Assembly: GCA_009773155.1 (NCBI GenBank)
Contig: WOVA01000016.1
Coordinates: forward strand, 25,507 to 89,506
Direction: 5' to 3'
Origin: Elusimicrobiota bacterium
GTDB taxonomy: Bacteria > Elusimicrobiota > Elusimicrobia > Elusimicrobiales > UBA9959
DNA length: 64,000 bases
This document shows, piece by piece, positions 11,336 through 51,611 of the stretch. The position numbers were made by a program, and so were the translations under genes. Positions within the stretch are counted from its first letter, which is position 1; the number at the start of each line of letters is the position of its first letter. The notes beneath the pieces are model-generated. The model was not told the DNA's origin, ran no database searches, and was given only the letters and a program-made list of their open reading frames with translations.

Positions 11336-11398
11336 GGGACACCATGCCGCATGGTGTCCCCCGCTGATACACCATGCCGCATGGTGTCCCCCGCTGAT
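11336..11398. repeat. GGGACACCATGCCGCATGGTGTCCC palindrome, tandem pair (30-nt unit x2)
   Basis: The unit acaccatgccgcatggtgtcccccgctgat occurs at 11339-11368 and again at 11369-11398, in the eno-ftsB spacer. Confidence 0.9.
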
Positions 11399-14363: not shown

Positions 14364-14819
14364 GTGAACAAGCGTCTCTCATCCAAGGCGACGCAGTACC
14401 TGCTGGACGCCTCCAACTTCGCGCGCCGTTTTCCCGGCGGTCATGGGTTCTCGGCGGACCTGGCGGAGGCCGAGTTCCTGGGCTGGATAGAGGATTTGAC
14501 CGGCCTGCCGGCCTTCGCCTCCTCCGGCTTCAGGGTCTATTTCGACGGGCCTTTCCGGGAGCTGCGGTTACGGGGACACCATGCCGCATGGTGTCCCCGT
14601 AACCGGGACCAGGTCAGCGTGACTTTCAACGAGGGGCGCACCGCCGACGAAGCGCTGCTGGAGACCGGGGAATTCCTGCTTTCCTGCGGCGTGCGCGCGC
14701 TGCTGGTCACCTCGGACAGGGGGCTGCAGTCGGCGGCCGGGGTGCGCGGCATCGGCTGGCTGAGCTGCGAGGATTTCTACAAGTTATGCCGTGCCGAGCT
14801 GCGCCGGGAAAGCCGTTGA
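14364..14819 (+). CDS. YacP/Rae1-like NYN-domain protein carrying an in-frame palindrome insertion
   Basis: Blocks align by eye with B. subtilis YacP: YLLDASNF / LLVDGYN, VYFDG / VVFDA, VSVTFNEGRTADE / VEVIFTKENETADE, LVTSD / VATSD. GTG start. Confidence 0.6.
   Translation: MNKRLSSKATQYLLDASNFARRFPGGHGFSADLAEAEFLGWIEDLTGLPAFASSGFRVYFDGPFRELRLRGHHAAWCPRNRDQVSVTFNEGRTADEALLETGEFLLSCGVRALLVTSDRGLQSAAGVRGIGWLSCEDFYKLCRAELRRESR
14566..14604. repeat. 39-bp perfect palindrome of the GGGGACACC family, inside the NYN-domain CDS
   Basis: ggttacggggacaccatgc-c-gcatggtgtccccgtaacc. It spans 13 codons, roughly the RLRGHHAAWCPRNR stretch. Confidence 0.92.
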
Positions 14820-18766: not shown

Positions 18767-19775
18767 CGGCCCGTTCCAGGTTGCGCAGGCTGATGCCGGC
18801 CCTGGCGCATTCCATCACGGCCGTCTCCACGGTTATGGAGGGGCTGGCGTTGCGGCCCAGGCAGCGCTTGAGCTCGAAAAGCCCGTCGAGGAGCCTGGTC
18901 ATGGAGGCCTTCTCCGGCCCTTCCGCCGTGCGCCAGCGCGCGGCCGAGCGGGTGACCAGGATATTGAGTATCAGGCGGGCGGTCTCGCGGGCCGTCGCCA
19001 GCTCGCGGCCCAGCTTGTCGGCCACGCGGAAAGGGGCCATCGGGTCCAGGTGGTTGAGGTCGGAAAGTTTCTCCAGCACCGCGCGCAGGTCCAGCGCGCG
19101 CTTGACCGAGCCGAAGGAGAGGCCGGCCAGGTTGTCGGCCTCGGCCAGCTCCAGGCCCTCGCGCCCCAGCACCTCGGCCACCTCGCGCCTGGCCAGGCCG
19201 CGGAAATTAACGGTGTGGCAGCGCGAGAGTATCGTCGGCAGCAGCGAGGCCCTGTTGGAGGCTATCAGGATGAAGGCCGTGTCCGGCGGCGGCTCCTCGA
19301 GCATCTTGAGTATGGCGTTCTGCGCCTCCACGGTCATGGAGGAGGCGTCGTTGATCACGAATATCTTCCAGGGCGAGAGTATGGGGCTGGAGTAGGCGCT
19401 GCGGGAGAGCTCGCGCACGGTGTCTATCTTTACGCTGCGCTGCTTCTCCTCGTCCTCGCCCAGCAGGTGCGCCTGCCAGGCGGCGTCCACCAGGCGGCAG
19501 TCGGGGTGGATGTTCTTGCCCAGCTGGAGGCAGGAGGGGCATTTGCCGCAGGCCCGGCCCGGCTCGCGGGGGGCGGGCTCGGCCGCGCCGAACAGTCCGC
19601 CCTCGTCGGCCGGCTCGCCGGTGCAGTTGAGCCCCGCCGCGAATTCCATGGCGGCCAGCCGCTTGCCTGTCCCCTCCTGGCCGTAGAAGATCATGGCCGG
19701 CGGCACGCGGCCGGAGGCGGCCAGCGCCCTCAGCGCGGCCCTCTCGCGTTCATGGCCCAGTATTTCCTTGAACAT
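18759..19775 (-). CDS. holB: DNA polymerase III subunit delta-prime
   Basis: AAA+ clamp-loader pattern (GHERERAAL...IFYGQEGTGKRLAA...C..C..C), SRC-like motif TILSRC, and the tmk-holB-metG context. Confidence 0.85.
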   Translation of the reverse strand: MFKEILGHERERAALRALAASGRVPPAMIFYGQEGTGKRLAAMEFAAGLNCTGEPADEGGLFGAAEPAPREPGRACGKCPSCLQLGKNIHPDCRLVDAAWQAHLLGEDEEKQRSVKIDTVRELSRSAYSSPILSPWKIFVINDASSMTVEAQNAILKMLEEPPPDTAFILIASNRASLLPTILSRCHTVNFRGLARREVAEVLGREGLELAEADNLAGLSFGSVKRALDLRAVLEKLSDLNHLDPMAPFRVADKLGRELATARETARLILNILVTRSAARWRTAEGPEKASMTRLLDGLFELKRCLGRNASPSITVETAVMECARAGISLRNLERADA

Positions 19776-20404
19776 CAGCGCGTCCTAAAACCCTTTTTGC
19801 GGAGCAGGGCGTTCACGGCGGAGCGGACCTGCCCGTGCACGGCCTCTATCGCCGCGGCCGCGTTCACGCGGACGACGCCGGGCCTGGCCGCCAGTTTCTT
19901 GTAAGCCCTGTTGACCTTCAGCCTGAAAGAGGCCGTCTGCAGTTCCATCCTGTCGCTGCCGCGGCATTCGCGCCGCTTGAAAACGCTGTCGGGCACGTCG
20001 AAGACTATGGTCAGGTCGGGCTTCAGGCCCATGGTGGCTATGCGGTTGAGCGTCTCCACCGTCTTCAGGTCCAGGCCGCGCCCGTAGCCCTGGTAGGCCG
20101 TCGTGGACATCGTATAGCGGTCGGAAACTATTATTTCGCCGGCTTTCAGCGCCGGCATTATGACTTTCAGCGTGTGCTTGGCGCGCGAGGTCTCGTAAAG
20201 GAAAAGTTCGGTGAGCGGTTCTATCTCGCTCTTGGGGTCCAGCAGTATGGCGCGTATCTTCTCGGAAAGATATGTCCCGCCGGGCTCGCGCGTCAGGCGC
20301 ACCTTGCGGCCCAGGCCGGTCAGCCAGTCCCGGAGCATGGCTGCCTGGGTGGATTTGCCGGAGCGGTCCGGGCCTTCGAGTACGATGAAAATCCCCCGTT
20401 TCAT
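19775..20404 (-). CDS. tmk: Thymidylate kinase
   Basis: P-loop FIVLEGPDRSGKST and the DRY motif (VSDRY). Start at MKRGIF (20404); the ORF-track extension crosses a palindrome repeat. Confidence 0.92.
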   Translation of the reverse strand: MKRGIFIVLEGPDRSGKSTQAAMLRDWLTGLGRKVRLTREPGGTYLSEKIRAILLDPKSEIEPLTELFLYETSRAKHTLKVIMPALKAGEIIVSDRYTMSTTAYQGYGRGLDLKTVETLNRIATMGLKPDLTIVFDVPDSVFKRRECRGSDRMELQTASFRLKVNRAYKKLAARPGVVRVNAAAAIEAVHGQVRSAVNALLRKKGFRTR

Positions 20405-20471
20405 TATTATATGATAGCAAAAAGGGAAAACCCCGGTTTTGCCGGGGTTTTCGGCGCGGCCGCGGCCGAAC

Positions 20472-20497
20472 GGGGCACCATGCCGCATGGTGTCCCC
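20472..20497. repeat. GGGGACACC-family palindrome copy (intergenic, tmk / rpoN-like divergent spacer)
   Basis: ggggcaccatgccgcatggtgtcccc. The left arm lacks one A. It is followed by ccccgatgccgg, as in the 50.5 kb copy. Confidence 0.8.
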
Positions 20498-20521: not shown

Positions 20522-20530
20522 TGTTATAAT
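20522..20530 (+). promoter_or_regulatory. Possible extended -10 promoter (TGTTATAAT) for the rpoN-like gene
   Basis: An exact TGnTATAAT lies about 27 nt before ATG 20557. No good -35 was found. Confidence 0.3.
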
Positions 20531-20556: not shown

Positions 20557-21654
20557 ATGAGAAAAAAACGCTCTCTCGGGCTGGAGCTTTCGGCCAGGGG
20601 CTCCCTGGAGGCCACGCTGCGCGCGGCCAGGATGATGGCGGCCGGCGAGGACGAGTTCCTGGCGCTGGAGCGGGCGGTGGAAGAGGACCCTCTTTTTAAA
20701 AAGCTGGTACGCCCGCCGGGCGGCGCGTCGCCGGCCGTGCGGCGCCGCAGGCCGGGCGGGGTGAATTTCGCCTGGAACCGCGCCCTGGGCCAGGACATGC
20801 TCGTCGAACCGGGGGAAGTCCCCGCCGGCGGCATGCTGGAAGGGCGCGAGGCCGCCCTGGCCCTTATAAAACGCATTGGCGCCGGGAATTTCGAGAGGTA
20901 TTTTCTTTCAGACGAGCCTGTACCGGCCGGGCGCAGTGCTTCCGGCACCGACAGCGGCGAAAGCCGCCCTGATCCGTCCGCGGAGGCCGCCGCGGCCTGC
21001 GGGCTCGCCCCGGCGGAGTTCGCCGAAGTCAGGGCTTTCACCGCCTCTTTCCTGGCGGCTCATGAGCGGCTGCAGCTGAAGCCCGTCGACCGCCCTTTCG
21101 CCGCCGTGGCGGCCGTCGCCGCCGGGCCGCGCGGCCCGGAACTTTCCTATCTTTCCTCGCGCTACGCGCGCGGGACCTACGACGTGGACCTGGCCGCCCT
21201 GCGCGGGCTGGGGGCCTCGGGCCTGATCTCCTCCGACGAAAAGCGCCGCCTCCGGCCGCTGCTGGCCGCCCTGCGGTCGCTCAACAGCAAGAAGCGCGGG
21301 CTGACGCTGCTGCTGCCGGCCCTGGCCGAGCGCCAGGCCGATTTCCTGCTGGGCCGCATCCCGTCGCCCAGGCCGCTGTCGATGACGGCCCTGGCCGCCG
21401 ACCTGGGCCTGAGCGCGGGCAGCGTCTCGCGGCTCGCCGCCGGGCGCAGCCTGCTCCTTCCCTCCGGTGAGGAAATAACCATACGCTCCCTGTTCCCGGG
21501 CAAGGGCTCCCGCTCGATTGACAGGATAAGGGATATATTGATACAAAAAGGCGGGGATAAACTGACCGACGACGAGGTCGCCGCCCGGCTGCGCGGGAAA
21601 TACGGGCTCAAACTCTCCCGACGCACGGTCAACCATTACAGGGGACGTATCTGA
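20557..21654 (+). CDS. rpoN: Short, divergent RNA polymerase sigma-54-like factor
   Basis: Region-I-like N-terminus (LGLELS...LEATL...DEFLALERAVEEDPLF). C-terminal HTH (PLSMTALAADLGLSAGSVSRLAAGR) and an RpoN-box-like LSRRTVNHYRGRI. At 365 aa it is shorter than typical RpoN. Confidence 0.68.
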   Translation: MRKKRSLGLELSARGSLEATLRAARMMAAGEDEFLALERAVEEDPLFKKLVRPPGGASPAVRRRRPGGVNFAWNRALGQDMLVEPGEVPAGGMLEGREAALALIKRIGAGNFERYFLSDEPVPAGRSASGTDSGESRPDPSAEAAAACGLAPAEFAEVRAFTASFLAAHERLQLKPVDRPFAAVAAVAAGPRGPELSYLSSRYARGTYDVDLAALRGLGASGLISSDEKRRLRPLLAALRSLNSKKRGLTLLLPALAERQADFLLGRIPSPRPLSMTALAADLGLSAGSVSRLAAGRSLLLPSGEEITIRSLFPGKGSRSIDRIRDILIQKGGDKLTDDEVAARLRGKYGLKLSRRTVNHYRGRI

Positions 21655-22751
21655 AAAAACAGGAATCACAATCGCAAGCGCTGCAGCACAGCCTTTTCCG
21701 GTCGGTCTTCAACGAGTCGACCGAGAGGTTCCTGGTGCTCGACGCCGCCGGCGTCATCCGGCTGGCCAATGACAGCGCCCTGGAGCTGCTCGGCTATAAA
21801 GAAAGCGAAGTGGTCGGCCAGGGCGTCGCGAAGCTGGTGCTGGAGAAGGACGCGGCCGAGCTGGAAGGCTTCCTGAAAGCCGTATCCGAAAGCGGCGAGC
21901 TGCGCAACTATAAATTCTACTTCCTCACCTCGCGCCAGAGCATCATCCGCCTCTTCATCAGCATAAAGGCCCTGAGGGACGAGGACGGGAAGCTCGAGGG
22001 CTTCAGGCTGGCCCTCTCGCTGGTCTATCCCGACGAGTGGGCGGCCCTGCGCGACCCGCATTTTTTCCAGGGCGTCGCCAGGAAGCTCGGCCGCCTGACC
22101 TCCGTGGGCCAGCTCACGTCCATCTTCGCCCATGATATCAAGAACCCGCTGCACGTGATACTTTCCACCTCCGAACTGATGCTCTCCTCCGGCGAGCTGC
22201 CGGCGGAATCCCGCGAGAGCCTGGAACTCATCGAGCGCAACGCCCAGCGCGCCTCGCGCATAGTCAAGACCCTGCTCGATTTTTCGCGCAGCGGCATCTG
22301 CCAGCTGCGCCCCTGCTCGGTTAACGATATCGCCGAGCATTGCATCGGGCTTCTCGCCAGCTCGCTGAAGACCTCCAGGATCTCGGTCAAGAAGGAACTC
22401 GGACAGGCGCCCAAGGTGTTCCTGGACCCGCATTACCTCAACAGCGTGGTCTACAATCTGCTCAACAACGCGGCCGAGGCCCTCGGCCCCGACGGGGGCG
22501 AGATAGTCGTCGCCTCCGGCGAGAACACGCCGGGGGAAGCCTTCCTGCGCATAACGGACAATGGCCGCGGCATGGAGCCCGGCGTCCTCTCGTCGGTATT
22601 TCAGCCCTTTTTCACCACCAAGGAGAACGGCACCGGGCTGGGGCTGTACCTGGCCAGGCAGGTCATGAACGAACACAGCGGCCGCATCACGCTCGACTCC
22701 AGGCCCGGCAAAGGCACGTCGGTGACGCTCTTCTTCACCAAGCTGGCCTGA
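21651..22751 (+). CDS. PAS-domain sensor histidine kinase (start uncertain)
   Basis: PAS (LFRSVFNESTERFLVLDAAGVIRLAN), H-box SIFAHDIKNPL, and ATPase N/G boxes (NLLNNAAEA, DNGRGM, GTGLGL). PAS residues extend upstream of the first GTG (21735). The only in-frame candidates are CTG 21651 and CTG 21681. Confidence 0.85.
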   Translation: MKKQESQSQALQHSLFRSVFNESTERFLVLDAAGVIRLANDSALELLGYKESEVVGQGVAKLVLEKDAAELEGFLKAVSESGELRNYKFYFLTSRQSIIRLFISIKALRDEDGKLEGFRLALSLVYPDEWAALRDPHFFQGVARKLGRLTSVGQLTSIFAHDIKNPLHVILSTSELMLSSGELPAESRESLELIERNAQRASRIVKTLLDFSRSGICQLRPCSVNDIAEHCIGLLASSLKTSRISVKKELGQAPKVFLDPHYLNSVVYNLLNNAAEALGPDGGEIVVASGENTPGEAFLRITDNGRGMEPGVLSSVFQPFFTTKENGTGLGLYLARQVMNEHSGRITLDSRPGKGTSVTLFFTKLA

Positions 22752-22772: not shown

Positions 22773-24141
<1,369 letters not shown>

Positions 24142-24146
<5 letters not shown>

Positions 24147-24202
24147 ATTTTTTTCTACAAAATATTGTAGAATAAAATCTACAATGTGGAATAAAGTCTA
24201 CA
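24142..24202 (+). promoter_or_regulatory. Putative enhancer (UAS): three TGTAGA-N6-TCTACA palindromes
   Basis: TGTAGA 24142 / TCTACA 24154 / TGTAGA 24166 / TCTACA 24178 lie on a 12-bp lattice, plus TGTGGA 24185 / TCTACA 24197. The array sits about 80-140 bp upstream of the sigma-54 promoter and starts at the activator stop codon. Confidence 0.6.
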
Positions 24203-24249: not shown

Positions 24250-24277
24250 ATCCCGTCCGTCAGGCGGGATTTTTTAT
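24250..24277 (+). terminator. Rho-independent terminator after the activator gene
   Basis: The hairpin tcccgtcc-gtca-ggcggga is followed by TTTTTT. Confidence 0.65.
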
Positions 24278-24278
24278 T

Positions 24279-24293
24279 TGGCAACTTTGTTGC
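24279..24293 (+). promoter_or_regulatory. Sigma-54 (-24/-12) promoter
   Basis: TGGCAACTTTGTTGC fits TGGCAC-N5-TTGC with GG and GC correctly spaced. It lies about 75 nt upstream of ATG 24369, which has a GGAGG RBS. Confidence 0.75.
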
Positions 24294-24368
24294 TACTACT
24301 TTTTTCGGGGAACATCGATTTTTCGGTCATCGCTTGACTGGTTTTAATAGTTAGTGGAGGAATAGCTT

Positions 24369-25787
24369 ATGAAACGGATCATTAATCTCCTGACGGCCGC
24401 GGCCCTCTCTTCGCTCCTGTCCCTGCCCGCCTACGCCGCCCCGCTGCTGATAAACTACCAGGGCCGGCTGATAGACACCGCCGGGAACCCGCTGATCGTA
24501 ACAAACCAGCCCATAACTTTCAGGATCTACGACGCTCTTACGGGCGGCAATCTCCAATGGACCGAGAACCAGAGCATAACTCCGGACAACGGCATCTTCA
24601 ATGTCTCGCTCGGAAGCGTCAGCTCTCTCCCCGCCCCGGTCTTTTCCTCCGACGACCGGTACCTCGAGGTCCAGATCGGCGCCGACTCCCCGCTTTCGCC
24701 GCGCACCCGGCTACTCTCCGTTCCCTACGCCGTTTACGCCGCCAATATAGGATCTCCTTCCAGTTCCATCAATGTTTCCACTCATATGGTCCTTTCCGGC
24801 GGCCAGCTCCGCTTCGGTAATTTTGCCTCCGCTCCCTCGGTCGCCGTCGGCGCCGGCGCGATGTATTATAACACCACCAATAACCAGCTCTATTACCACA
24901 ACGGCACGGCCTGGACAGCCCTGGCGGCCGGCGGCATCAGCCCGCTGACCGACAACGGTGACGGCACCGTTACCCTAAACGTGCCTGCCAACAGGGTCGG
25001 CCTTGGAAAAGCGCCCGCCGAAAAGTTGGACGTGGCCGGTAATATCAAGGCCGATTACGGCCTTATATCCGCGACCGCCGCGGTCAGCGGCGCGGTCTAT
25101 GTGGGCTCCGGCGCGAACATCAGCACGATAACGCCGACGGGATTCTTCGGCAGCGGCGCGGGGCTGCTTAACGTGCCGGTGGGCGACAATACGGTGACGT
25201 CGGCCAAGATAGTGGACGACAGCATAATGAACGCCGACATCAACGCGTCGGCCGCGATAGCCAAGAGCAAGCTGGCGGCTTTGAATATAGTGAACGCGGA
25301 CGTGGACGCGGCGGCCGCGATAGCCCCGTCGAAGATAGCGGGCACGGCGGCCATACTGGGCGCGAATACGTTTACCGGCGCGCAGACGTACGCCGCCGGT
25401 TCGTCGCTGGCGGCGGCGGCCGCACAGCCTGGCGTGGCGGTGTCGACGGCGGTCTTCATCGGCACGGGCGCGAACATCAGCACGATAACGCCGACGGGAT
25501 TCTTCGGCAATACAATACACGCTTCCAGCGCCACGCTGACGGGTGACGCGGAAGTCCGCGGCTTGATTAAGGCCGGCTCCACCCCGGCGGCCATAACCGA
25601 TGTCTCCGGCAATGTCTTGGCCTCCAAACTGATCGGGGCAATACCACAAGCTGTCACTGTGTTCGTCTCCGCTGATTGTGAGGCTTTAACCCCAGGGACT
25701 GTGGCACAGTTCTGCTATAACAGCACTTCGTTTATTCTTAATGTTTCGACTAGCACGAATCTCGGAGGCTTTGCTCCGTTGCATTAG
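24369..25787 (+). CDS. Secreted fibre/adhesin-like repeat protein (uncharacterised)
   Basis: Signal peptide MKRIINLLTAAALSSLLSLPAYA. The protein is Ala/Gly/Ser/Thr/Asn-rich with no TM. It has the motifs INYQGRL and MYYNTTNNQLYYHNGTAWTAL and the internal repeat G.GANISTITPTGFFG. Confidence 0.7.
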   Translation: MKRIINLLTAAALSSLLSLPAYAAPLLINYQGRLIDTAGNPLIVTNQPITFRIYDALTGGNLQWTENQSITPDNGIFNVSLGSVSSLPAPVFSSDDRYLEVQIGADSPLSPRTRLLSVPYAVYAANIGSPSSSINVSTHMVLSGGQLRFGNFASAPSVAVGAGAMYYNTTNNQLYYHNGTAWTALAAGGISPLTDNGDGTVTLNVPANRVGLGKAPAEKLDVAGNIKADYGLISATAAVSGAVYVGSGANISTITPTGFFGSGAGLLNVPVGDNTVTSAKIVDDSIMNADINASAAIAKSKLAALNIVNADVDAAAAIAPSKIAGTAAILGANTFTGAQTYAAGSSLAAAAAQPGVAVSTAVFIGTGANISTITPTGFFGNTIHASSATLTGDAEVRGLIKAGSTPAAITDVSGNVLASKLIGAIPQAVTVFVSADCEALTPGTVAQFCYNSTSFILNVSTSTNLGGFAPLH

Positions 25788-25819
25788 TGATAGACCTAAG
25801 CATCCCTCGCCGGCTAATT

Positions 25820-28003
25820 ATGGGCTACAAAAAAGGCGGCATGATACTATTGACTTTCCTTGTCGGCGGCTTGTTCGCCGTCCAGGGGGTTTCTTTTGCC
25901 GCTAACACCCTGGAGACGCGGGCGGTCACGGGCGGGCTGGGGATCTCGTCGGGCACGGCGAAGATACTTGAGTCGGTGATAGGCGAGCTCTCCGGGCCGG
26001 CGCCGACGGGGTCCGTGCGCAAGGTCCTCTCGGGTCACGCCCGGACCAGCCACAGCCCGGGCGCGCTCTACGACATCGCGGTGACCACGCAGCCGGTGGA
26101 CGAAGGGCAGGTGCGGATAACCTTCACCACGCCCGGCCGCGCCGGCTTCCGCGGGCAGCTTTCCTTCGTGGAAGTCAAGATAGCCACCTACGCCATCACC
26201 GCGGCTAATTACGAGGCGATAACTTCGTCGCTGACGCTGACGGCGCTGAGCACCGGCACGGCGGGTCTGACCACTTATTATCACCTGGTCCCCGGGCCGA
26301 CCTATTACGCCGCCGGGCGCGCCCGCGACGCGGCGGGCATGAAGAGCCGCCTCTCGCCGACGCCGACGTTCCTGACCTCGGCCATAGCGCCGGCCCCGGT
26401 CACCTCCATTACTATCGTCAACTCAACCTACGGCGCCGTTAATATCACCTGGAACGTGACCGGCGACGACGGTTTGATCGGCGACCTGACCACCGGCTAT
26501 TTCCGCATAGCTTATTCCAGCGTGCCGGCGGAAGCGGCCCTTTTCAGTTCCGCCAATTACACCACCCAGCTTTCCACCAGCGCGCTGGCCGGCTCCACCC
26601 AGTATCACCGGCTCTCCGGCCTGCAGGGTAATGTGACCTATTACGCCGCCGTCTTCATCGGCGACGAGGTGACCGTCTACGGCGGACTCGGGACCATCGC
26701 GCAGGTTGTCACGATGGCTTATCCGCCGATCCAGTCCGGCTTCTCAAATCTTTCCAGCGACGGGTTCACGGTCAGTTATACGGCCAACAACTACCCCGGC
26801 GCGCAGTACTATATCCAGACGTCCAGCGACCCCGCTTTCTCCTATGCCACGAATTCCGGCTGGATCACGACAAGCTCGGCGTCCTTCTCCGGGCTCAACA
26901 CCAACCAGACTTACTATGTGCGCGGCAAGGCGCGCAATTCGCAACTGGTGGAAACCCAGTATGCGGACCTCGGCAGCGTCTCGCTGACACTCAACGTTTC
27001 AAAGCCCAAGCCGCCGCCCCTGAAGGGGGAGGCCTCCGGCTCCACCATAATCCTTTCCTGGGACCAGGTGGTCTACAACATAGCCGGCGGCACTACCACC
27101 ATAGCCGCGTACGACATCTACTACAGCACCGGGGTCAACGGGGCGGAGAATTTCATCGAGGCCGTCTCCAGCTCGGTGTTCACCAGGACTTACACGCCTC
27201 CCGCGGCGCGCTGGTACTATGTGAAGGCGCGCGACCAGTACAGCCTGCGCAGCGATCCGTCCATATGGGTGAAGAGTACGCTCGACGTGGCGCGCGTGGT
27301 GGCCGCCGACCTCCGCGCCGTGGCGGATATGCCGCCGGACGCGGGCTACCAACTCGCCGCCTCCGGCCTTACGCTGCGGATATCCCACCAGAGCCAGTAC
27401 GAGACCGGGCTTGTGCAGGCCTCGTATAAGGTCTCGCTGCTCGACAATAACGGCAACGAGCGCGTGGGCCTGGACCTGCCGTCCGCGGCCGTCGTGACTA
27501 TGCCCACCACCCGGACCGGCGCCGTGACCATAACCGGCTACTCGCCGTCGATCTCCTATTCCGTCTACGATTACGCCGTCTTCTACTACAACGGCGTGGA
27601 GGACGTGAACATCGGCGGCGCGGTGGACCCGAACTCCGGCACCGTCAGCGTCTCCACAAAGAAGACGGGCGTCTTCAAGGTAAAGCAGGTTATAAGGCCT
27701 TCCTCCTTCAGGATAACCCAGACCGTGCCGCGCAAGATCTTCACGCCCAACGGCGACGGGATCTGGGACGAGTTCAACATCGTCTACGACAACCCGGAGG
27801 GGCTCTCCATCTCCGACGCCAAGGTTTATGACCTCTCCGGGGCCGAAGTGGCGTCGCTGCGCGCCGGCACCTATAATACCAGCGCCTCGCTGTCGTGGGA
27901 CGGCCGGCGGAAGGGCGGCGACAAGGCGGCGGCCGGCATCTATGTCTACCAGTTTAAGGCCGGGTCAAAGTACCATAACGGCACGATGGTGCTGGCGCGG
28001 TGA
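25820..28003 (+). CDS. Large secreted FN3/Ig-like repeat protein with T9SS-type-B-like (gliding-motility C-terminal) domain
   Basis: Signal/TM segment MILLTFLVGGLFAVQGVSFA and repeated beta-rich modules (..YY.RGKARN.., WYYVKARD). The C-terminal IFTPNGDGIWDEFNIVY...GIYVYQFKAG resembles the PNGDG.ND C-terminal sorting domain. Start ATG 25820 is preferred over GTG 25787. Confidence 0.75.
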   Translation: MGYKKGGMILLTFLVGGLFAVQGVSFAANTLETRAVTGGLGISSGTAKILESVIGELSGPAPTGSVRKVLSGHARTSHSPGALYDIAVTTQPVDEGQVRITFTTPGRAGFRGQLSFVEVKIATYAITAANYEAITSSLTLTALSTGTAGLTTYYHLVPGPTYYAAGRARDAAGMKSRLSPTPTFLTSAIAPAPVTSITIVNSTYGAVNITWNVTGDDGLIGDLTTGYFRIAYSSVPAEAALFSSANYTTQLSTSALAGSTQYHRLSGLQGNVTYYAAVFIGDEVTVYGGLGTIAQVVTMAYPPIQSGFSNLSSDGFTVSYTANNYPGAQYYIQTSSDPAFSYATNSGWITTSSASFSGLNTNQTYYVRGKARNSQLVETQYADLGSVSLTLNVSKPKPPPLKGEASGSTIILSWDQVVYNIAGGTTTIAAYDIYYSTGVNGAENFIEAVSSSVFTRTYTPPAARWYYVKARDQYSLRSDPSIWVKSTLDVARVVAADLRAVADMPPDAGYQLAASGLTLRISHQSQYETGLVQASYKVSLLDNNGNERVGLDLPSAAVVTMPTTRTGAVTITGYSPSISYSVYDYAVFYYNGVEDVNIGGAVDPNSGTVSVSTKKTGVFKVKQVIRPSSFRITQTVPRKIFTPNGDGIWDEFNIVYDNPEGLSISDAKVYDLSGAEVASLRAGTYNTSASLSWDGRRKGGDKAAAGIYVYQFKAGSKYHNGTMVLAR

Positions 28004-29109
28004 GCGGAGATATTATGGAAAGGGACGAAAATAAAGTTTCTCTCCTCGCGGCCGCGGCGGCGCTGCTCTTTCTCTCCGCCGCCTCAGCGCGCGCCTCGTT
28101 CACCGATTCGGGTTACGCGGCCCGCCAGGCCGCGATGGGCCAGGCTTTCACCGCCATCGCCGACGACTCCGGCTCGGTGCCCGCCAATCCAGCGGGGCTC
28201 GTGAATCTCTCCGGTCCCGAGCTCACCGCCGTCTACGGCAAGCTCTACCAGGGCCTCTCCGACAATTCCGACATCGGCCGCGGCTATTTCGGCTTCGCTT
28301 CTCCGGTGAAGCGCTGGCTGCCCGGCGCCGCGGCTTTCAGCTGGGACGAGACCCGCCTGACGGAAGCCTACGCCGAAACCTCCTTCTCGGTCTCCTACGC
28401 CACCCGCGCCTGGCGCGGCCTGGCGACCGGCCTGACGCTCAAATACCTGCGCAAGGGCTACGAATCCGATTCTTACACGGCGGTTGACCCGCTTTTCAGC
28501 GGCGGCTACTCCAAGGCCGCCCTGGGCGTAGACCTCGGCGCGCATTACCGGCTCTCGCCGAAATATACGTTCGGCCTGCTGCTGCGCAATATCAACCGCC
28601 CCGACCTGGGCATAGGCGGGAAGGACGCGCTGCCGGCGCAGGGCAGGCTCGGCGCGGCCTACTGGCTGCGCAACGGCGTGGTCAGCCTGGACGCCGGCTT
28701 CGGCGAGGATTTCGAGCTGGCCCTGGGCGCCGAATACGTCCTTCACCACAAGTACCCGCTGCGCCTGGGGCTCAACGTAAACGACGACGCGCGCCGCAAC
28801 GTGAGCTTCGGCCTCGGCGCCAGGATGGCCTCTTTCGGCCTCGATTATTCCTTCACCCTGCCGATAGGCGGCGTGCAGGACATCTCGGGCTCGCACCTGC
28901 TGGCTTTCTCCATGCGCTTCGGCCGGGCCGACGCCGGCTTCTACGCGGCGCAGGCCGATCCCGCCGCCGCGGCCCAGCTGCGGGACGCGCTCGCGGCCCT
29001 CAAGGCCGCCGAGCAGCGCGAGCGCGATCGCGAGCGGGAGATCCTGGACCTGGAGCGCCGGCTGCTGGAGAAGCAGCGCGCTGTCGGCGGGCCGGCGCCC
29101 TCCCGATGA
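28000..29109 (+). CDS. Outer-membrane beta-barrel protein (PorV/PorQ- or PorP/SprF-like), C-terminal coiled coil truncated by a frame change
   Basis: Signal peptide LLFLSAASARA. The motif AAMGQAFTAIADDSGSVPANPAGL resembles that family. Alternating beta-strand pattern ending ...GSHLLAFSMRF, then a coiled coil (EQRERDREREILDLERRLLEKQ), with the stop at 29107-29109. Confidence 0.7.
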   Translation: MSGDIMERDENKVSLLAAAAALLFLSAASARASFTDSGYAARQAAMGQAFTAIADDSGSVPANPAGLVNLSGPELTAVYGKLYQGLSDNSDIGRGYFGFASPVKRWLPGAAAFSWDETRLTEAYAETSFSVSYATRAWRGLATGLTLKYLRKGYESDSYTAVDPLFSGGYSKAALGVDLGAHYRLSPKYTFGLLLRNINRPDLGIGGKDALPAQGRLGAAYWLRNGVVSLDAGFGEDFELALGAEYVLHHKYPLRLGLNVNDDARRNVSFGLGARMASFGLDYSFTLPIGGVQDISGSHLLAFSMRFGRADAGFYAAQADPAAAAQLRDALAALKAAEQRERDREREILDLERRLLEKQRAVGGPAPSR

Positions 29110-29485: not shown

Positions 29486-29619
29486 CCGGGACCGAGGCCG
29501 GCGCTTTATCAGGGATTTCCCTTTTTAGTAACATTTGCGAAACACGCCGGGTGTAAATTATAGGCGCCGGTACTCCGCCCCGCCGGCGGCAAGGACGGGG
29601 CAGGTGCGGAAGAAAGCAA

Positions 29620-29642
29620 GGACACCATGCGGAATGGTGTCC
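29620..29642. repeat. GGACACC-family palindrome copy upstream of the giant coiled-coil gene
   Basis: ggacaccat-gcgga-atggtgtcc, about 40 nt before ATG 29682. Confidence 0.75.
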
Positions 29643-29681
29643 CCACCCGGCGGAACGATGTTTTTTTTACGGACTTTAACT

Positions 29682-32600
29682 ATGAACGACAAATGGGACG
29701 AATCTTCGCTTAACGAGCAGGCGATAACCGACCTGGAGACGGCCAAGCTCGCGCTGCGCTGGGCGCTGGACAAGCTCCGCGCCAACCAGGAAGAGTCGCT
29801 CAAATCCCGCCAGACGCTGCAGGAGAAAGCCTCGCAGGTCTCCTTCCTCGAGAACCAGGTCAAGGCCAAGAACGCCGAGATGGAGCGGCAGCAGCGCGCG
29901 CAGGAGGAGGAGATCAAGTCCCGCCAGGAGAGCCTGGAGTACCAGTTCAGGTCCCGCCTGGAGCGCCTGACCGAGCGCGAGAAGGAACTCGAGGATAACG
30001 CCGCGAAGCTGGAGGGCTCCTTCAAGGCCCGCGAGCAGAAGCTCACCGACGACTTCCAGAAAAAATCCGAGGAACTGCGCGGCCGCTGGGGCCAGGTGGA
30101 GGCCGAGATCTGGCAGCTGCGCCAGGAGCAGCTGGCCAAGCAGCAGGAGTTCGAGAAGCTTTACGCCGAGCGCCTCTCGGCCGAGCAGAAGCGCGCCCGG
30201 GAAGAGTCGGAGAACTCCCGCGCGGAGATGGAGAGAAATTACGGGTCCCGCGTGCAGGAGCTGGAGAAGCGCGAGCACACGCTGGGCGAGGAGCTCAAGA
30301 AACAGGAAGCGGTGATGAAGTGGGCCCGCGACAGCTGGCAGAAGGACGCCGACGAGCGGGAGAAGAAGCTCAAGGTCCGCGAGCTGGAGATAGAGAAGAA
30401 ACTGCTCGAGAAAGAGCAGGAGATAGACGATTACAAGGTCAAACTGGGCCTGCTCAACAAACAGCTGACCGACCTGCCCGAGGCCGTGCGCAAGCGCGAC
30501 GAGGAACTGGAGCGCTACCGCGGCGCGCTGGACAGCCTGGAAGGCGTGATCAGGACCCTGGAAGGGGAGAAGAGAGCCCTCGCCCAGGATTCCGATTCCA
30601 GGCAGTCCCGCCTGGCCGAGGCGCTCGAGGCCGAGAAGGCCCGTTTCAAGGACCTCGAGAACGAGATCCCCAGGCGCCTCAAGATAGCCATAGAGCACGA
30701 GCGCGCCCGGCTGCAGGAGAAGGTCTCCGAGGTGGAGAAGAACTTCGGCCTGGACCTGCGCAAGAAGCAGGAAGAGGCGGACTACCTCGAGCGCAATCTC
30801 AAAACTTTCGAGGAGACCATAAAGACCCTGCAGGCCGAGCGCGAAGGGTTCGCGCAGAAGACCGAGCAGCTGCAGACCCAGCTCAATATCCGCTCCGAGG
30901 AGACCTCCTTCCGCGAGCGGCAGCTGCAGTCGGAGTACGAGGTCCGCCTCAGGGTGGAGCTCGAGAAGCAGAGCCGCGGCCTGCGCTCGGAGATAGAGAC
31001 CGCGCAGCGCATCTACGAGGACAATCTGCGCCTCAAGATCGAGGAGATCGCCCACCTGCGCAAGGAGATGGAGACCCTGGCCGGCGAGAAGTCCGACCTG
31101 TCCTCCTCCTCCTCCGAGCTGCGCCGCCAGGTGGAGGCCCAGAAGGATAAGTACGAGCGCGACCTGGCCTCGACCAGGGCCGCCCTCAAGGAGAGCCACG
31201 ACGCCGAGCTGGGCCGCCGCATGGAGGAGGAAACGGCGAAGCACGAGCAGGCCCGCGCGGCGCTGCAGAAGGATTTTTCCGCCCAGCTGGAGGGCCTCAA
31301 CCTTATAGTCGCCGAGCGCGAGGCGGAGCTCAACCGGTTCAAGAACGAGGTCCAGCGGATGTCCGCCGAAAAGGCCGAGGCTATTGCGCGGGAGAAGGAC
31401 AAGGCGCGCCAGGACCTGGAGCTGCAGGCGAAGGCGTTCGCCGAGACCGAGAAGATATACCAGGAGAAGCTGCAGCAGTCCGCGCGCAATATCGAGGCCG
31501 TCCGCGTCGAGAAGGAAGAGACCATACTGCGCGAGAAGGACCGCCTCGAGCGTATCTACGCCGAGCGCGAGAAGGATTACGAGGATCAGCTGGCCCGCAG
31601 GGACCAGGAGGTCGTGCGGCTGCGCGAGGACCTGCTAAAGTCGGCCCATGAGCGGGAGACGGTTCTTCGCGAGGTTTCGGCGGAGCGCGACGCGCTGCGC
31701 CAGAAGCTCAGGGAAGCGCATGACGCCGCCGCCCGTGCGGAAGCGCTCAAAGAACTGGAACTGGAGCGCGCCCGCCAGGCCGAGAAGGACAAGTCGGCCG
31801 ACATCCTCGACAAGCGCGACAAGGAGCTGGCCGCGCTGGCAAGGACCAAGGACGAGCAGGACGCCGCCTACCGCCGCTCGCTGGAGGATTTCCGGGCCAG
31901 GCTCTCCGAAGCCGTGGGCAAGATGGAAGAGCTTAAGGCCGTGGCCGAGGAACGCCAGACCCGCGTCTCCGCGCTGCAGGTGGAGATCTCCGAGGCCAGG
32001 CGCCAGCATAACGACGAGCATATGGCGGTGTCCGGCCGGCTGGCCGACAGGGAAAAGCAGCTCAAGTCCCTGCGGATGGACTATGATTCGCTCAAGGCCA
32101 ATTCGGCGGCCGTCACCCAGGAGTCGCAGAAGCAGATTGGCGAGGCGCTGATGCGTCTCAAGGCCGCCGAAGAGCACCGCGGCGCTTCCGAGAAGGCTCT
32201 TTCCGAAAGCCGGCGCGAGATAGATATGCGCAGGGTAGAGCTTTCCAAGAAAGAGGACGAACTGCTAAAGCTGCACTCCGACCTGGAGAGCTCGCGCAAC
32301 TCCGCAGCCCGGACAGTGGAGGAATCGCGCGGCCGCGAAACTTCCCTCAAGAGCCGGCTGGAGGTGCTCGAGTCCGAGCTGGCCGGCCGCTCTTCGCTGG
32401 CGTCGGACCTTACCGCCGAGCTGAAAGCGCGCAACGCCGAGCTTTCAAAGGCGGGGGAAGAGAAGTCCCGCCTGGAGCAGGAGCTCAACGTCAGGCTCTC
32501 GGAATTCAAGCAGCAGCTTGAGTCGGAGCGCAAGGAGTTCCGCCTGTCCTACGAGCGGCTCAACCGCGAATTCGCCGACCGGGAAAAGGCCCTGATCGGG

Positions 32601-33413
32601 GAGGTCAACGCCCTCAGAGGCCAGTTGACTTCCGGCGAGTCACTGGCCCAGGACCTGAAGTCCCGGCTCGAGAGCGCGGAGGCGGCCGGGCCCGGGATGA
32701 AGGCGCGCATAGACGAACTGCAGAAGAAGATCAGGAACATGGAAGAGGCGTCCTCGGGCCTCGCCGAGAGCCTGCTGGCGGCCAAAGAGAGCGCCTCCGC
32801 CGCCGCGGCCCGGATAGAGAAGCTCTCCGCCCAACTGGAGGACGAGAAGAAGCGCCGCTCCTCGCTCGAAGCCGCCAACGAGACGCTCTCCTCGGAACTG
32901 CGCAGGAAACTCGAGGAGTTTTCGGCGGCCTCCTCGTCCGTCAAGGACCTTTCCGGCCGCCTGGCCCGGGCGCAGGAACTATGTGAGACGGAAAAGCGAA
33001 AGCGGGAGGAGACGGAAGTCTATTCCCAGACCTCCGCTTCCGCCCTCCAGGAGAAGGAAGTGGAACTGTCCGACCTGAAGTTCTCCATGAAGGAGCTGTC
33101 TTCCAGGGTCAATAAACTCCAGTCCCTCTACGAGGCCGAGAAGCTCAAGCGCGAGGAGACCGAGGTTTATTCCCAGACCTCGGCCAGCGCCCTGCGCGAG
33201 AAGGAAGACGAGCTCAAGGGCCTCGGGAAGCGCTGCGCGCGGCTGGAATCCGAACTCAACGCCTCCAGGAAAGAGGCGGGTTCCGCGTCGGTCGAGGCGG
33301 CCAGGCTGGCCGGCGAGATCGAGGAGCTCCGGCGCGTCAAGGAAGAGTACGAAAAGAGCCGCAGGCTGGCGGAAAAGCTCAAAGATAAGCTCAAGCTATG
33401 GAAGAAGGAATGA
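29682..33413 (+). CDS. Giant coiled-coil-rich protein (about 1240 aa), no enzymatic domain recognised
   Basis: Almost entirely E/K/R/Q/L/A heptad-like sequence with no TM or signal peptide. Start set at MNDKWDES (29682; ATG 29658 is also possible). The ORF-track TTG 29535 start would read through a palindrome repeat. A C-terminal duplicated block EK.KREETEVYSQTSASAL.EKE.EL is present. Confidence 0.8.
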   Translation: MNDKWDESSLNEQAITDLETAKLALRWALDKLRANQEESLKSRQTLQEKASQVSFLENQVKAKNAEMERQQRAQEEEIKSRQESLEYQFRSRLERLTEREKELEDNAAKLEGSFKAREQKLTDDFQKKSEELRGRWGQVEAEIWQLRQEQLAKQQEFEKLYAERLSAEQKRAREESENSRAEMERNYGSRVQELEKREHTLGEELKKQEAVMKWARDSWQKDADEREKKLKVRELEIEKKLLEKEQEIDDYKVKLGLLNKQLTDLPEAVRKRDEELERYRGALDSLEGVIRTLEGEKRALAQDSDSRQSRLAEALEAEKARFKDLENEIPRRLKIAIEHERARLQEKVSEVEKNFGLDLRKKQEEADYLERNLKTFEETIKTLQAEREGFAQKTEQLQTQLNIRSEETSFRERQLQSEYEVRLRVELEKQSRGLRSEIETAQRIYEDNLRLKIEEIAHLRKEMETLAGEKSDLSSSSSELRRQVEAQKDKYERDLASTRAALKESHDAELGRRMEEETAKHEQARAALQKDFSAQLEGLNLIVAEREAELNRFKNEVQRMSAEKAEAIAREKDKARQDLELQAKAFAETEKIYQEKLQQSARNIEAVRVEKEETILREKDRLERIYAEREKDYEDQLARRDQEVVRLREDLLKSAHERETVLREVSAERDALRQKLREAHDAAARAEALKELELERARQAEKDKSADILDKRDKELAALARTKDEQDAAYRRSLEDFRARLSEAVGKMEELKAVAEERQTRVSALQVEISEARRQHNDEHMAVSGRLADREKQLKSLRMDYDSLKANSAAVTQESQKQIGEALMRLKAAEEHRGASEKALSESRREIDMRRVELSKKEDELLKLHSDLESSRNSAARTVEESRGRETSLKSRLEVLESELAGRSSLASDLTAELKARNAELSKAGEEKSRLEQELNVRLSEFKQQLESERKEFRLSYERLNREFADREKALIGEVNALRGQLTSGESLAQDLKSRLESAEAAGPGMKARIDELQKKIRNMEEASSGLAESLLAAKESASAAAARIEKLSAQLEDEKKRRSSLEAANETLSSELRRKLEEFSAASSSVKDLSGRLARAQELCETEKRKREETEVYSQTSASALQEKEVELSDLKFSMKELSSRVNKLQSLYEAEKLKREETEVYSQTSASALREKEDELKGLGKRCARLESELNASRKEAGSASVEAARLAGEIEELRRVKEEYEKSRRLAEKLKDKLKLWKKE

Positions 33414-36049
33414 CCTCCTCCTCCGGACTGGAAGGCCTGGACGCCGAAATAGACCGCCTCCTGGAGGAAGTGCAATCCAAGGAGAAAGTTTATTCCGCGC
33501 GCGTAGCGCTGCTTGAAGGCGAGCTCAAGCGCCGCGACGGGGAGGTGCACACCCTCTCGGCCAGGCTGGCCGAGTCCGAGAAGACGTGGTTCGCGCGGGA
33601 GCGCGAGCTCAAGGAGAAAGGCCGCTCGCTGAAGGAGGTCCTTGCCGAGCGCGACGCGGCCGCCGCCGACCTTACCCTCAAGGCGGAGGAACTGACGAAG
33701 AAGATCGCCTCCCTCGAAAAGAGCCTGGAGAAGGAACTCACCGCCAACAGGGAGAAGGAAGTCTACATACAGAGCGCCAAGTCGGCGGTAAAGGGGCGCG
33801 ACGCCGAGGTGGAGAAGACCTGGCGTATGCTGGAGGAGGCCCGCTCCGAGATAGCCTCCTGGAAGGCGCAGACCTCCGAGCGCGACTCGCGCCTGGAGGC
33901 CGCCGCCGCCGGGAACCAGGCCCTCGCGCTGGAGATACAGAAGCTCAACAATTCGCTGCAGCAGGCGGCGCAGGGGTTCCGGCACAAGCTGGACATGGTA
34001 AGGAAGGAAGCCGAGTCCGCCGTGCTGGAGAAGTCCTCCGCGCTGGTCCGCGTCAGCGCGGCCGAGGAGGCCATGAATGAGCGGGCCGCCTCCATGGAGA
34101 AGCTGGCCGTCAGGGCCAGGCAGCTGGAAGAGACCCTCGCCGTGCGCGAATCCCGGCTGGCCGAGCTGGAGGACAGGCTTAAATTTTTCGAAACGGTCCC
34201 GCAGTCGGCGGAGAAGGCTTCCGCCGAGACCGCGGCGCTGCGCCGCAAGGAGCGTCTGGTCTCCGAACTGACGTCACGGGTGGCCTCGCTGGAGAAGGAC
34301 CTGACTTCCGTGGAGGAGGACCGGGCGCGGCTGGCCGAGCGCATGCACGTCTCCGAGGCGGAACTGCGCGCCGCCCGCGAGGAGCTGGCCGGCTCGACCG
34401 CCAGGTTAAGGGCGCTGGAGTCGGAGCGCGACTCGTTCAAGAAACTTTCGGCGGAGGCCCAGGAGATGGCCGCCGCCATCTCGGAGAAGTCCGGGCGCGA
34501 GGATACCGAGAAACTCTCTAAAATAGGCGAGAGCCTGCGCCAGGAGCACGTCCGCTACAGTCAGGCGCTCTCGCGGGCCGAGGAACTCGCCACCCGCTAC
34601 GCCGCGCTCGAGGCCGATCACGAGGCGCTGAAAAAACGCCACGACGATTCCGTGGCGGAGAAGGCGGTGGAGATAGAGAAGCTGCGCTCCGACCTGGCCC
34701 AGGCCGAAGCGGAAGGCGCCAGGCGCCTGTCCGAACTGGCCGAGACCGACCGCCGCCGCTACCACGAGCTCGCGGGCGAGATGCAGCAGCTCAGCTCCCG
34801 CCTCGCGGAGAAGGAGATGGAGCTGGAGGCCGCCCGCTCCGGCCACGAGGCCATAAAGGCCGAATGCGCCCGCCTGCGCGAGCACGAGCGCGAACTGCAT
34901 AAGAATTACGAGCGCCAGCTCAAGGACGACAACCGCCAGCTGGAGGAGGCCCGCGCGGCCGCCGCCAGGCTGGAGGGGGAAATGCACGCCATCCATTCCC
35001 GGGAGTCCGCCCTGAAGGCGGAGGCCGCGGCGCTGAAAGCCGAGATAGAGGTCTCCAAAAAAGAGAAGAACACGGCCGCTTCTTCCGGCAAAAAGCTCAG
35101 GGAGCTGGAGTCACGGCTGGAGGAAAAGAACGACGAACTGTCCGAGGCGCGCAAGAGCCTCTCCAAGATCTCGACGGAGAAGGCGCGCTGGCACGAGCGG
35201 GAGCGCAAGCTGGCGGAGGACGGCCGCGGCGGCAAGGCCAAAGCCGAACTGGCCGACGCCGAGCGCCGCCTGGCCGCCAAGGAGCAGGAACTGTCCGGGG
35301 TCTCCGACAGGCTGGAGGCCGCCGCCGCCGAGATCTCCGGCCTGCGCGCCGCGAGGGAGAGCTTCAGGAGCAGGCCCGCCCCGGGCGCCTCGACGGACCT
35401 GCAGGAGCTGGTCGCCGGCATCGCGCACCAGATCTCCAATTCCGTCAGCATAATACGCAGCCACGCCGAGTACTGCCTGGAGGCGCCTAAAGAGTCAGAT
35501 CTCAAAGAGCCGCTGGGCGCGATAGTGCGCAGCATAGTCACCCTGCAGAAGCGCATCGAGGAAATAGCCGACTTCTCCAGGCCCGTTCTGCTGCAGCGCA
35601 AGACCGTCGGGCTCGGCGACATAGCCAGGGAGGCCCTGGCCTTCGCCGCCAACGCGCAGGGGCAGGTCCCTTTCCAGTCCAGGGTCTCCGCCCCTAAAGA
35701 CCTTCCTCCGCTGCGCGTGGACCAGGTCCGCCTGCAGGAGGCCCTGGAGCATGTCCTGACCAACGCCGCCGAGTCGCTCGGCAAGGACGGGCGGATAGTG
35801 GTGGACATACGCCGTTCGTCGGGCGGCCAGGTCATAAAAGTGTCCGACACGGGACAGGGAGTAGAACCCAAGAACCTGCCGGCGGTCTTCGAACCTTTCT
35901 TTTCCACCAGGCCAGGCAAGCTGGGTCTGGGGCTGGCGATAGCCAAGAATATCATCAAGTCGCACGGCGGAGAGATCAAGCTCTCCAGCGAGTTCGGCCG
36001 CGGAACGCAGGCCGAGATCTTCCTCCCGGACGCTCCGGAAGAGGACTAA
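33398..36049 (+). CDS. Histidine kinase with about 620-aa N-terminal coiled coil
   Basis: Overlaps the previous gene (ATGA at 33410-33413). Long coiled coil, then H-box LVAGIAHQISNSVSII and an HATPase (LTNAAESL, SDTGQGV, GKLGLGLAIAKNII.HGG). No TM segment seen. Confidence 0.85.
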   Translation: MEEGMTSSSGLEGLDAEIDRLLEEVQSKEKVYSARVALLEGELKRRDGEVHTLSARLAESEKTWFARERELKEKGRSLKEVLAERDAAAADLTLKAEELTKKIASLEKSLEKELTANREKEVYIQSAKSAVKGRDAEVEKTWRMLEEARSEIASWKAQTSERDSRLEAAAAGNQALALEIQKLNNSLQQAAQGFRHKLDMVRKEAESAVLEKSSALVRVSAAEEAMNERAASMEKLAVRARQLEETLAVRESRLAELEDRLKFFETVPQSAEKASAETAALRRKERLVSELTSRVASLEKDLTSVEEDRARLAERMHVSEAELRAAREELAGSTARLRALESERDSFKKLSAEAQEMAAAISEKSGREDTEKLSKIGESLRQEHVRYSQALSRAEELATRYAALEADHEALKKRHDDSVAEKAVEIEKLRSDLAQAEAEGARRLSELAETDRRRYHELAGEMQQLSSRLAEKEMELEAARSGHEAIKAECARLREHERELHKNYERQLKDDNRQLEEARAAAARLEGEMHAIHSRESALKAEAAALKAEIEVSKKEKNTAASSGKKLRELESRLEEKNDELSEARKSLSKISTEKARWHERERKLAEDGRGGKAKAELADAERRLAAKEQELSGVSDRLEAAAAEISGLRAARESFRSRPAPGASTDLQELVAGIAHQISNSVSIIRSHAEYCLEAPKESDLKEPLGAIVRSIVTLQKRIEEIADFSRPVLLQRKTVGLGDIAREALAFAANAQGQVPFQSRVSAPKDLPPLRVDQVRLQEALEHVLTNAAESLGKDGRIVVDIRRSSGGQVIKVSDTGQGVEPKNLPAVFEPFFSTRPGKLGLGLAIAKNIIKSHGGEIKLSSEFGRGTQAEIFLPDAPEED

Positions 36050-36063
36050 GTCCCGAGGAAAAC

Positions 36064-50815: not shown

Positions 50816-50917
50816 TTTCACCCCTTTTTTTGCTTCTTTTCCCCTCTTTTTCATTAAAATTGCCGTAGCCGGTCTTTTCCGGATACCCTGAAAAGCGCCT
50901 TCCGGCTTTGCTCACAT

Positions 50918-51583: not shown

Positions 51584-51611
51584 AGTTAACATAATATATC
51601 TTATCGTAAGT
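51584..51611 (-). other. dif-like XerC/XerD recombination site candidate
   Basis: The minus strand reads ACTTACGATAA-GATATA-TTATGTTAACT. By hand alignment from memory, the XerD arm matches E. coli dif at 10/11 (TTATGTTAAAT), and the whole site matches B. subtilis dif (ACTTCCTAGAATATATATTATGTAAACT) at 23/28. It is embedded in an AT-rich tract. Confidence 0.6.

Follow-up and report, generated by a model that had tools for sequence, protein, structure and literature searches.

A short sigma-54 homologue of Elusimicrobiota, probably a functional minimal sigma-54, encoded beside a two-component activator and a sigma-54-type promoter

Here we analyse a gene in a 64,000-nucleotide (nt) stretch of contig WOVA01000016.1 from an Elusimicrobiota bacterium (the window, to whose full length all positions below refer), whose 365-amino-acid (aa) product, FD189_1003, is a short homologue of the RNA polymerase factor sigma-54 (RpoN). 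Alone among the bacterial sigma classes, sigma-54 depends on an activator driven by ATP. We read the gene, with a probability of roughly 0.62, as a functional minimal sigma-54 and as the ordinary sigma-54 of these Elusimicrobia; in the lineage of the window, this minimal sigma-54 is most likely coupled genetically to one two-component activator and to a target promoter. The reading draws on homology, predicted fold, synteny, promoter conservation and a clade-wide distribution. The protein is very probably a sigma-54 homologue that works like sigma-54, and we file it as a new variant rather than as a standard member because it has the DNA-binding features of the class and does not match the Pfam models for the core-binding domain (CBD) and for the N-terminal AID, or reach the NCBI equivalog TIGR02395.

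NCBI lists an identical protein as 'MAG: hypothetical protein FD189_1003 [Elusimicrobia bacterium]', and the sole significant Pfam domain of the 365-aa product is Sigma54_DBD (PF04552; residues 239-363, 43.3 bits against a gathering threshold of 22.8). It is about 110 aa shorter than the sigma-54 of Klebsiella and Escherichia coli (477 aa) and about 40-170 aa shorter than the 30 proteins with AID, CBD and DBD (406-488 aa) that make up our canonical reference alignment, in line with the shortfall of roughly 100 aa given in an earlier note that was made from the letters of the DNA alone. That note had also described a C-terminal helix-turn-helix (HTH) and an RpoN-box-like SRRTVNHYR in this open reading frame (ORF), and both are present. 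The gene and the parts of its product map as follows.

20557-21654, forward strand: gene for the short sigma-54 homologue FD189_1003, 365 aa (ORF, NCBI identity, Sigma54_DBD, hhalign, AlphaFold2 (AF2) and Foldseek).
20572-20712, forward strand: region-I-like segment, residues 6-52, with predicted helices 13-28, 31-42 and 45-51 (hhalign, conservation and AF2).
20842-20916, forward strand: two helices, residues 96-120, 'LALIKRIG..FERYFL' (low-confidence hhalign; predicted local distance difference test (pLDDT) score 85-94).
20977-21069, forward strand: last two CBD helices, residues 141-171, 'EIA..CGL...E...I..f' (high-confidence hhalign; about Klebsiella 236-262).
21232-21438, forward strand: extra-long helix and HTH, residues 226-294 (HMMER to 5ui5 and to E. 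coli and Klebsiella chains; AF2 helices).
21616-21642, forward strand: RpoN box, residues 354-362 (SRRTVNHYR, which pairs with ARRTVAKYR in solved sigma-54), the element for -24 recognition.

Aligned with hhalign against the 30 canonical proteins, residues 124-365 match canonical positions 204-440 with a probability of 99.8% (E 1.5e-30). Because this alignment pairs 'EIA..CGL...E...I' with 'IA..LGVS..EV..A..FI', homology extends back into the last two CBD helices, a position at which family members also give weak HTH-type Pfam matches. A greedier alignment with the Klebsiella sequence added is co-linear over residues 6-365, placing region I on region I and residue 141 at about Klebsiella 236. 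The region-I-like N-terminus proposed in the earlier note stands as such a co-linear segment, and its match is weak: region I aligned alone gives a probability of 59% (E 9e-5), pairing 'L.L.E.eF...I...E.DPLF.kL' with canonical 'L.L.s.EL...I..El.eNPaLE'. Within the segment, whose family motif reads L.L.E..F...I...E.DPLF.KL, 90% or more of 110 members keep E31, E42, F47 and L50, and pLDDT lies at 88-98.

In canonical sigma-54, region I spans residues 1-56, region II 57-120, the CBD 120-250, the extra-long helix 315-353, the HTH 365-385 and the RpoN part 386-477, and the extra-long helix and HTH read the -12 element (PMC5095919). The family has neither region II nor the first CBD helices, with 45 residues against about 115 in Klebsiella (residues 55-170), and one further CBD helix is absent between 'FERYFL' and 'EIA..CGL'. 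From their sequence, the two helices at residues 96-120 may tentatively be equated with the canonical CBD helices 'AVLKRIQRF..LRDCLLIQL'; the equivalence of the modelled helices 98-117 stays tentative because hhalign over residues 60-160 reaches 14-16% (alternative alignment to the canonical CBD: E 0.002, probability 14%). Conservation in the family reaches 90% or more at G108, F112, F116 and L117 of these helices. In the RpoN box, S354, R356, V358, N359, Y361 and R362 are invariant among eight close homologues, and the family consensus is SRRTVN.YR. Sequence searches of solved structures match the C-terminal 45% only, with the extra-long helix and HTH aligned by HMMER from profile position ~198-210 onward, and the best-scoring chain is Aquifex 5ui5 (E 2e-20 with an 8-sequence profile, E 4e-29 with a 110-sequence profile).

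The predicted structure follows the same order of parts. A first AF2 model from eight sequences had a pLDDT of 61, too weak to use, and was replaced by a model from 110 sequences with a pLDDT of 88.9 and a predicted template modelling (pTM) score of 0.80. Its N-terminal half is made of three helices (13-51), helices at 98-117 and helices at 140-171; the rest comprises a beta region, a 34-residue helix (226-259), the HTH (276-283, 287-294) and a C-terminal three-helix bundle. Compared with the PDB through Foldseek, along the lines that the earlier note had proposed, the model finds sigma-54 chains at all of ranks 1-31, with E values down to 5e-7 and a probability of 1.0.

To place the protein among its relatives, we ran a profile search of 1.84 billion representatives of 50%-identity clusters, which returned at least 220 family representatives at E<=1e-30 with a median length of ~364 aa. 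Among the 150 matches listed, nearly all have 330-420 aa and align over almost the whole profile. Sigma54_DBD is matched in all 110 members scanned with Pfam, and the members with an organism name (12 of 12) are Elusimicrobia, Elusimicrobiales, Elusimicrobiaceae or Endomicrobiales. Because positions in region I and in 'FE.YFL' are conserved and the matches are full-length, the whole protein is under selection; and since at least 220 clusters are short and the named members are all Elusimicrobiota, the short form is typical of the clade and not peculiar to this locus. Members are labelled hypothetical at NCBI, and a few carry the labels 'RNA polymerase sigma-54 factor' or 'specialized sigma54-like protein' at JGI. 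In the literature that we found on sigma-54 or rpoN of Elusimicrobia and on the sigma-54 CBD, the short form is undescribed: Francke et al. (2011) reported sigma-54 and its activators as absent from Elusimicrobium minutum (PMC3162934), a second survey counted RpoN in none of two Elusimicrobia genomes, the two available in 2011 (PMC3372290), and a 2025 survey of sigma-54 regulons does not mention the phylum.

The kinase/activator pair and the sigma-54-type promoter that the earlier note had placed next to the gene are both confirmed, and together with their surroundings they lie as follows.

21651-22751, forward strand: sensor histidine kinase with PAS, HisKA and HATPase_c domains (Pfam, NCBIfam; frame open from a CTG that overlaps the sigma stop, CTGA).
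22773-24146, forward strand: NtrC-type activator with Response_reg, Sigma54_activat (227.8 bits) and HTH_8 (Pfam; AtoC/NtrC-like by NCBIfam).
24142-24202, forward strand: array of half-sites, TCTACA/TGTAGA, that repeat about every 12 nt and lie 80-135 nt ahead of the -24/-12 element (candidate activator sites).
24250-24278, forward strand: terminator-like hairpin and T-run closing the sigma-kinase-activator operon (consensus scan; hairpin 24250-24270).
24279-24294, forward strand: -24/-12 sigma-54-type promoter TGGCAACTTTGTTGCT (TGGCAA-N5-TTGCT; from the sequence, conserved in relatives).
24369-29109, forward strand: likely target operon (ORFs, Pfam; promoter dependence suggested by position).

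The activator keeps an intact GAFTGA motif, as read in its translation, and the sigma gene appears to be co-transcribed and translationally coupled with the kinase. Orthologues of the kinase (366-369 aa) likewise overlap the sigma stop, and the one in the related locus L004 has a TTG start at the position of the window's CTG. The first canonical start in the window, GTG at 21735, would cost 28 residues of the PAS domain; this shortening and the TTG of L004 suggest a CTG start or coupled re-initiation.

We compared the neighbourhood across 20 related loci (L001-L020), which with the window give 19 distinct places. The sigma gene adjoins an NtrC-type activator in 16 of the 19 (the window and 15 loci), even where the other neighbours differ. 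Most often, the sigma gene, kinase and activator follow one another in the same direction, and the start of the kinase overlaps the stop of the sigma gene; L015 and L017 have a divergent kinase-activator pair, and L016 has no kinase. In L018, L019 and L020, the sigma gene stands alone in a housekeeping setting, flanked by cstA and by ROK or spoIID genes, and the surrounding 8-10 kb contain no activator. These stand-alone genes and the clade-wide short form speak against the second, locus-dedicated paralog that the earlier note had suggested. The window holds a single sigma-54-like ORF and a single activator, and a canonical sigma-54 turned up neither there nor in the 20 loci (canonical-profile scan for L001-L016; Pfam tables of called genes for L017-L020). 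In L018 and L019, the sigma gene is preceded by truncated genes, considered as possible activator C-termini; they encode CstA-like membrane proteins. A ribonucleotide reductase gene beside the sigma-like gene in L004 (6077-9817) and L020 (10767-14201) contains an intein with a LAGLIDADG endonuclease, and its orthologue in L001 is free of the intein.

The promoter recurs with the gene. TGGCA-N6-TTGC follows the activator gene in nine further places (L001, L003, L004, L008, L009, L011, L012, L013 and L016), and the promoter consensus is tTTGGCAA-N5-TTGCta. The element also stands before two unrelated operons 5-8 kb away, as expected of a general sigma-54 regulon: in L015 an Rrf2/cytochrome oxidase operon, in L017 one for multihaem cytochromes. 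Non-redundant loci totalling 284 kb contain it 14 times, where 1.65 occurrences are expected and 200 shuffles give at most 6. Upstream of it in the window, the TCTACA/TGTAGA half-sites are invariant columns in comparison with L004 and the distant L001, and the array is a putative set of activator-binding sites; the terminator-like hairpin at 24250 is kept in L004 and not in L001. The likely target operon encodes three proteins: a secreted one of 472 aa, whose translated N-terminus resembles a signal peptide; an fn3/FlgD_ig/CHU_C protein of 738 aa; and one of 369 aa, whose Pfam matches of outer-membrane beta-barrel type are weak.

These elements suggest how the locus may work. A housekeeping-type promoter would yield the sigma factor, the PAS sensor kinase and the NtrC-type activator together, and the short protein would bind core RNA polymerase and park a closed complex on TGGCA-N6-TTGC promoters. 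Once phosphorylated by the kinase, the activator would occupy the repeats at 24142-24202 and, with ATP and its GAFTGA loop, would remodel the holoenzyme at 24279-24294, so that the downstream cell-surface operon would be switched on. Core binding, activator dependence and the place of sole or main sigma-54 of the organism are what we infer for this protein.

A candidate promoter for the sigma-like operon lies just upstream of the gene.

20522-20530, forward strand: possible extended -10 element TGtTATAAT of the sigma-like operon, 26 nt before the ATG (picked out by eye).

The consensus scan did not report this element because a -35 match is absent. The same intergenic region, between tmk and the sigma-like gene, carries a copy of a 25-nt palindrome, GGGACACCATGCNGCATGGTGTCCC, that occurs seven times in the window with at most three mismatches (11336-11360, 11366-11390, 14573-14597, 20472-20496, 29619-29643, 48255-48279 and 50543-50567), none being expected by chance. 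It has no exact match in 16 related loci and looks like a genome-specific repeat of the repetitive extragenic palindromic (REP) kind. The tmk ORF (19775-20488, reverse strand) is listed with 237 aa; its orthologues have 206-209 aa, and the true start is therefore probably an internal Met near 20404, just upstream of which a GC-rich hairpin with a T-run is found at 20426-20452.

On the other side, downstream of the putative target operon, a second two-component pair (33398-37236) consists of a kinase of 883 aa, whose N-terminal part is long and coiled-coil-like, and a response regulator of 390 aa, whose output part has a weak match of beta-propeller type (SGL). AT skew is strongly positive (0.25-0.36) at 30000-36000, far over the rest of the window, and the skewed stretch covers a 1292-aa ORF (29535-33413, no Pfam match) and the 883-aa histidine kinase (33398-36049).

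The sigma-like gene of the window carries a short insertion that its relatives lack and that overlaps a repeated segment.

20929-20979, forward strand: 51-nt in-frame insertion encoding 17 aa, GRSASGTDSGESRPDPS, in a surface loop (genome-specific; overlaps the repeat copy at 20925-20976).
51737-51788, forward strand: second copy of the 52-nt segment (in a lower-GC stretch, GC 0.584, with only short overlapping ORFs).

As the earlier note had observed, the 52-nt segment within the gene recurs at 51737: the two copies are identical at 45 of 52 positions (87%) and form the single non-trivial BLAST match of the gene within the window. GRSASGTDSGESRPDPS is missing from every homologue and appears as a clean 51-nt indel against the DNA of L006, L004 and L008. 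The loop that holds it ranges from 6 to 23 aa in the family (median 8), the 23 aa here being the longest, and it is modelled poorly, with a pLDDT of 60 for residues 121-130 and 72 for residues 131-140 (below 50 for residues 124-138 in the 8-sequence model). We read the insertion as recent, tolerated and templated, and as no functional part of the protein. Its edges show a short microhomology (CCGGCCG / CCGTCCG), and the second copy lies 30 kb away in non-coding DNA. The 52-nt unit was not found in 16 related loci. A structured RNA or DNA element as the nature of the repeat is not supported, three of four strand folds having z of -0.5 to +0.6 and one -2.1; Rfam reports five tRNAs only on the window and no RNA family at 50900-52700. 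That stretch, which holds the second copy and lies between convincing genes, contains short overlapping ORFs only and has a G+C of 0.58 against ~0.65; the window has 61-68% G+C over most of its length.

Several results weigh against reading the gene as a functional minimal sigma-54, among them results on the CBD, which is described as the most conserved part of sigma-54 (PMC5095919). Sigma54_CBD (PF04963) has no Pfam match in the protein at E<=1 and Sigma54_AID (PF00309) has none either, the region-I-like N-terminus included, so a search with the three domain models that the earlier note had named returns the DNA-binding domain alone: the gene is typical for its clade, with a match to that domain and none to the CBD. 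Across the family, neither Sigma54_CBD nor Sigma54_AID is matched in any of the 110 members at E<=0.01, or in six longer outliers. With TIGR02395, the rpoN equivalog of NCBI, the protein scores 51.5 bits and does not reach the cut-off of 277.35, which probably explains its label there. Between residues 52 and 123, hhalign detects nothing significantly similar to the first CBD subdomain (probability <=16%), and core binding is for this reason not assured. The Foldseek TM-scores are only 0.35-0.40, a range to be expected when a multi-domain protein is set against conformations bound to RNA polymerase, and because the output does not display the aligned query residues, the search does not settle the CBD question. 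Lastly, the negative for a canonical rpoN spans the 64-kb window and the 20 loci, not whole genomes.

How far these points carry depends on what else the gene could be. A second, locus-dedicated paralog, with a canonical rpoN elsewhere serving the rest of the genome as in the case of Xanthomonas rpoN2, is the alternative to which we give the most room, and we consider it unlikely. The activator adjacency in 16 of 19 places suggests such a dedication, and the gene of L018-L020, which has no activator nearby, argues against it; the sigma-54 promoter immediately downstream fits a private circuit, whereas the -24/-12 elements before the unrelated operons of L015 and L017 do not. Apparent co-transcription and translational coupling with the kinase add to its case, as does a precedent that also answers the impression in the earlier note that such an arrangement is out of the ordinary: in Xanthomonas, fleQ-vemR-rpoN2 are transcribed as one operon, so that an rpoN paralog sits with an activator (PMC6637908). 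Against it stand the lack of a canonical sigma-54 in the window and the 20 loci, a family that is phylum-wide and uniform in length, and the literature that we found, which records no RpoN in Elusimicrobia (PMC3162934, PMC3372290). Should these genomes prove to carry a canonical rpoN as well, the gene would be no more than a divergent paralog.

Less likely again is that the family docks on RNA polymerase without the canonical CBD interface, or does not bind core at all. Either the family-specific segment (~52-96) and the four-helix CBD remnant form a new, smaller interface, or the protein does not bind core and is a -24/-12-reading regulator that works alongside the AAA+ activator; a new interface, if true, would redefine the minimum needed for a sigma-54. 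Close to the second of these, and in our view improbable, is that the gene encodes no sigma factor and is instead a DNA-binding regulator that has kept the promoter-reading module and lost core binding, for example a repressor on -24/-12 sites or a protein that recruits the activator by another route. The fold search, with sigma-54 chains only at ranks 1-31, the homology that reaches into the CBD and the family-wide conservation of the region-I-like motif and the 'FE.YFL' helices all argue against such a regulator, as do the GAFTGA activators and -24/-12 promoters maintained nearby, which need a sigma-54 and for which no other candidate was seen. It stays alive because half of the CBD is absent: ~70 canonical CBD residues and region II are missing, the CBD and AID models find none of the 110 members, and NCBI calls the protein hypothetical. 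That the gene is a decaying, functionless rpoN remnant, hurt by deletions and by the 51-nt insertion, we regard as very improbable. It is shorter than any canonical sigma-54 compared and its insertion is unique to the genome of the window, but the reading frame is unbroken, the insertion preserves it and falls in a variable loop, full-length proteins persist in more than 200 diverged clusters, and co-variation yields a confident structure prediction.

Read as a functional minimal sigma-54, a phylum-wide variant of ~350 aa with no region II and about half of the CBD would be a ready-made minimal form of the factor, with which the needs for core binding, closed-complex locking and promoter escape could be probed. 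The taxonomic picture would also change, as the protein is hypothetical by its NCBI label and the 2011 surveys counted two Elusimicrobia genomes as RpoN-less. Because members are so labelled and the phylum so counted, the sigma-54 regulons of environmental Elusimicrobia are invisible to standard annotation; such regulons would include surface-protein genes here and cytochrome oxidase and multihaem cytochrome operons elsewhere.

Set beside known systems, the protein resembles the sigma-54 of E. coli and Klebsiella (5nwt, 5ui8, 7qv9) in its region-I-like N-terminus with an 'E..NP.LE'-type motif and in the co-linear series of the last two CBD helices, beta region, extra-long helix, HTH and RpoN box, and it shares with canonical sigma-54 the promoter type, GG-N10-GC, and a GAFTGA AAA+ activator as partner. 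It departs from them as a short form, with ~110 aa less and without the acidic region II, and, unlike a typical rpoN, its gene lies outside the lptB-hpf-ptsN context. The best-scoring solved relative, the sigma-54 of Aquifex aeolicus (5ui5, 2o8k, 2ahq), is itself short; the Aquifex chain fits the canonical profile from its CBD on, whereas the Elusimicrobia family aligns to Aquifex confidently only from position 198, that is, over the extra-long helix, HTH and RpoN parts. As with RpoN2 of Xanthomonas, the sigma-54 gene shares an operon with a response regulator and a sigma-54 activator, but RpoN2 has RpoN1 as a paralog in its own genome and the short form here is clade-wide. Truncated RpoN-like proteins of Neisseria are natural sigma-54 derivatives without part of the domain set (PMC12316311); unlike these, the Elusimicrobia form keeps the DNA-binding part and has a reduced N-terminal half.

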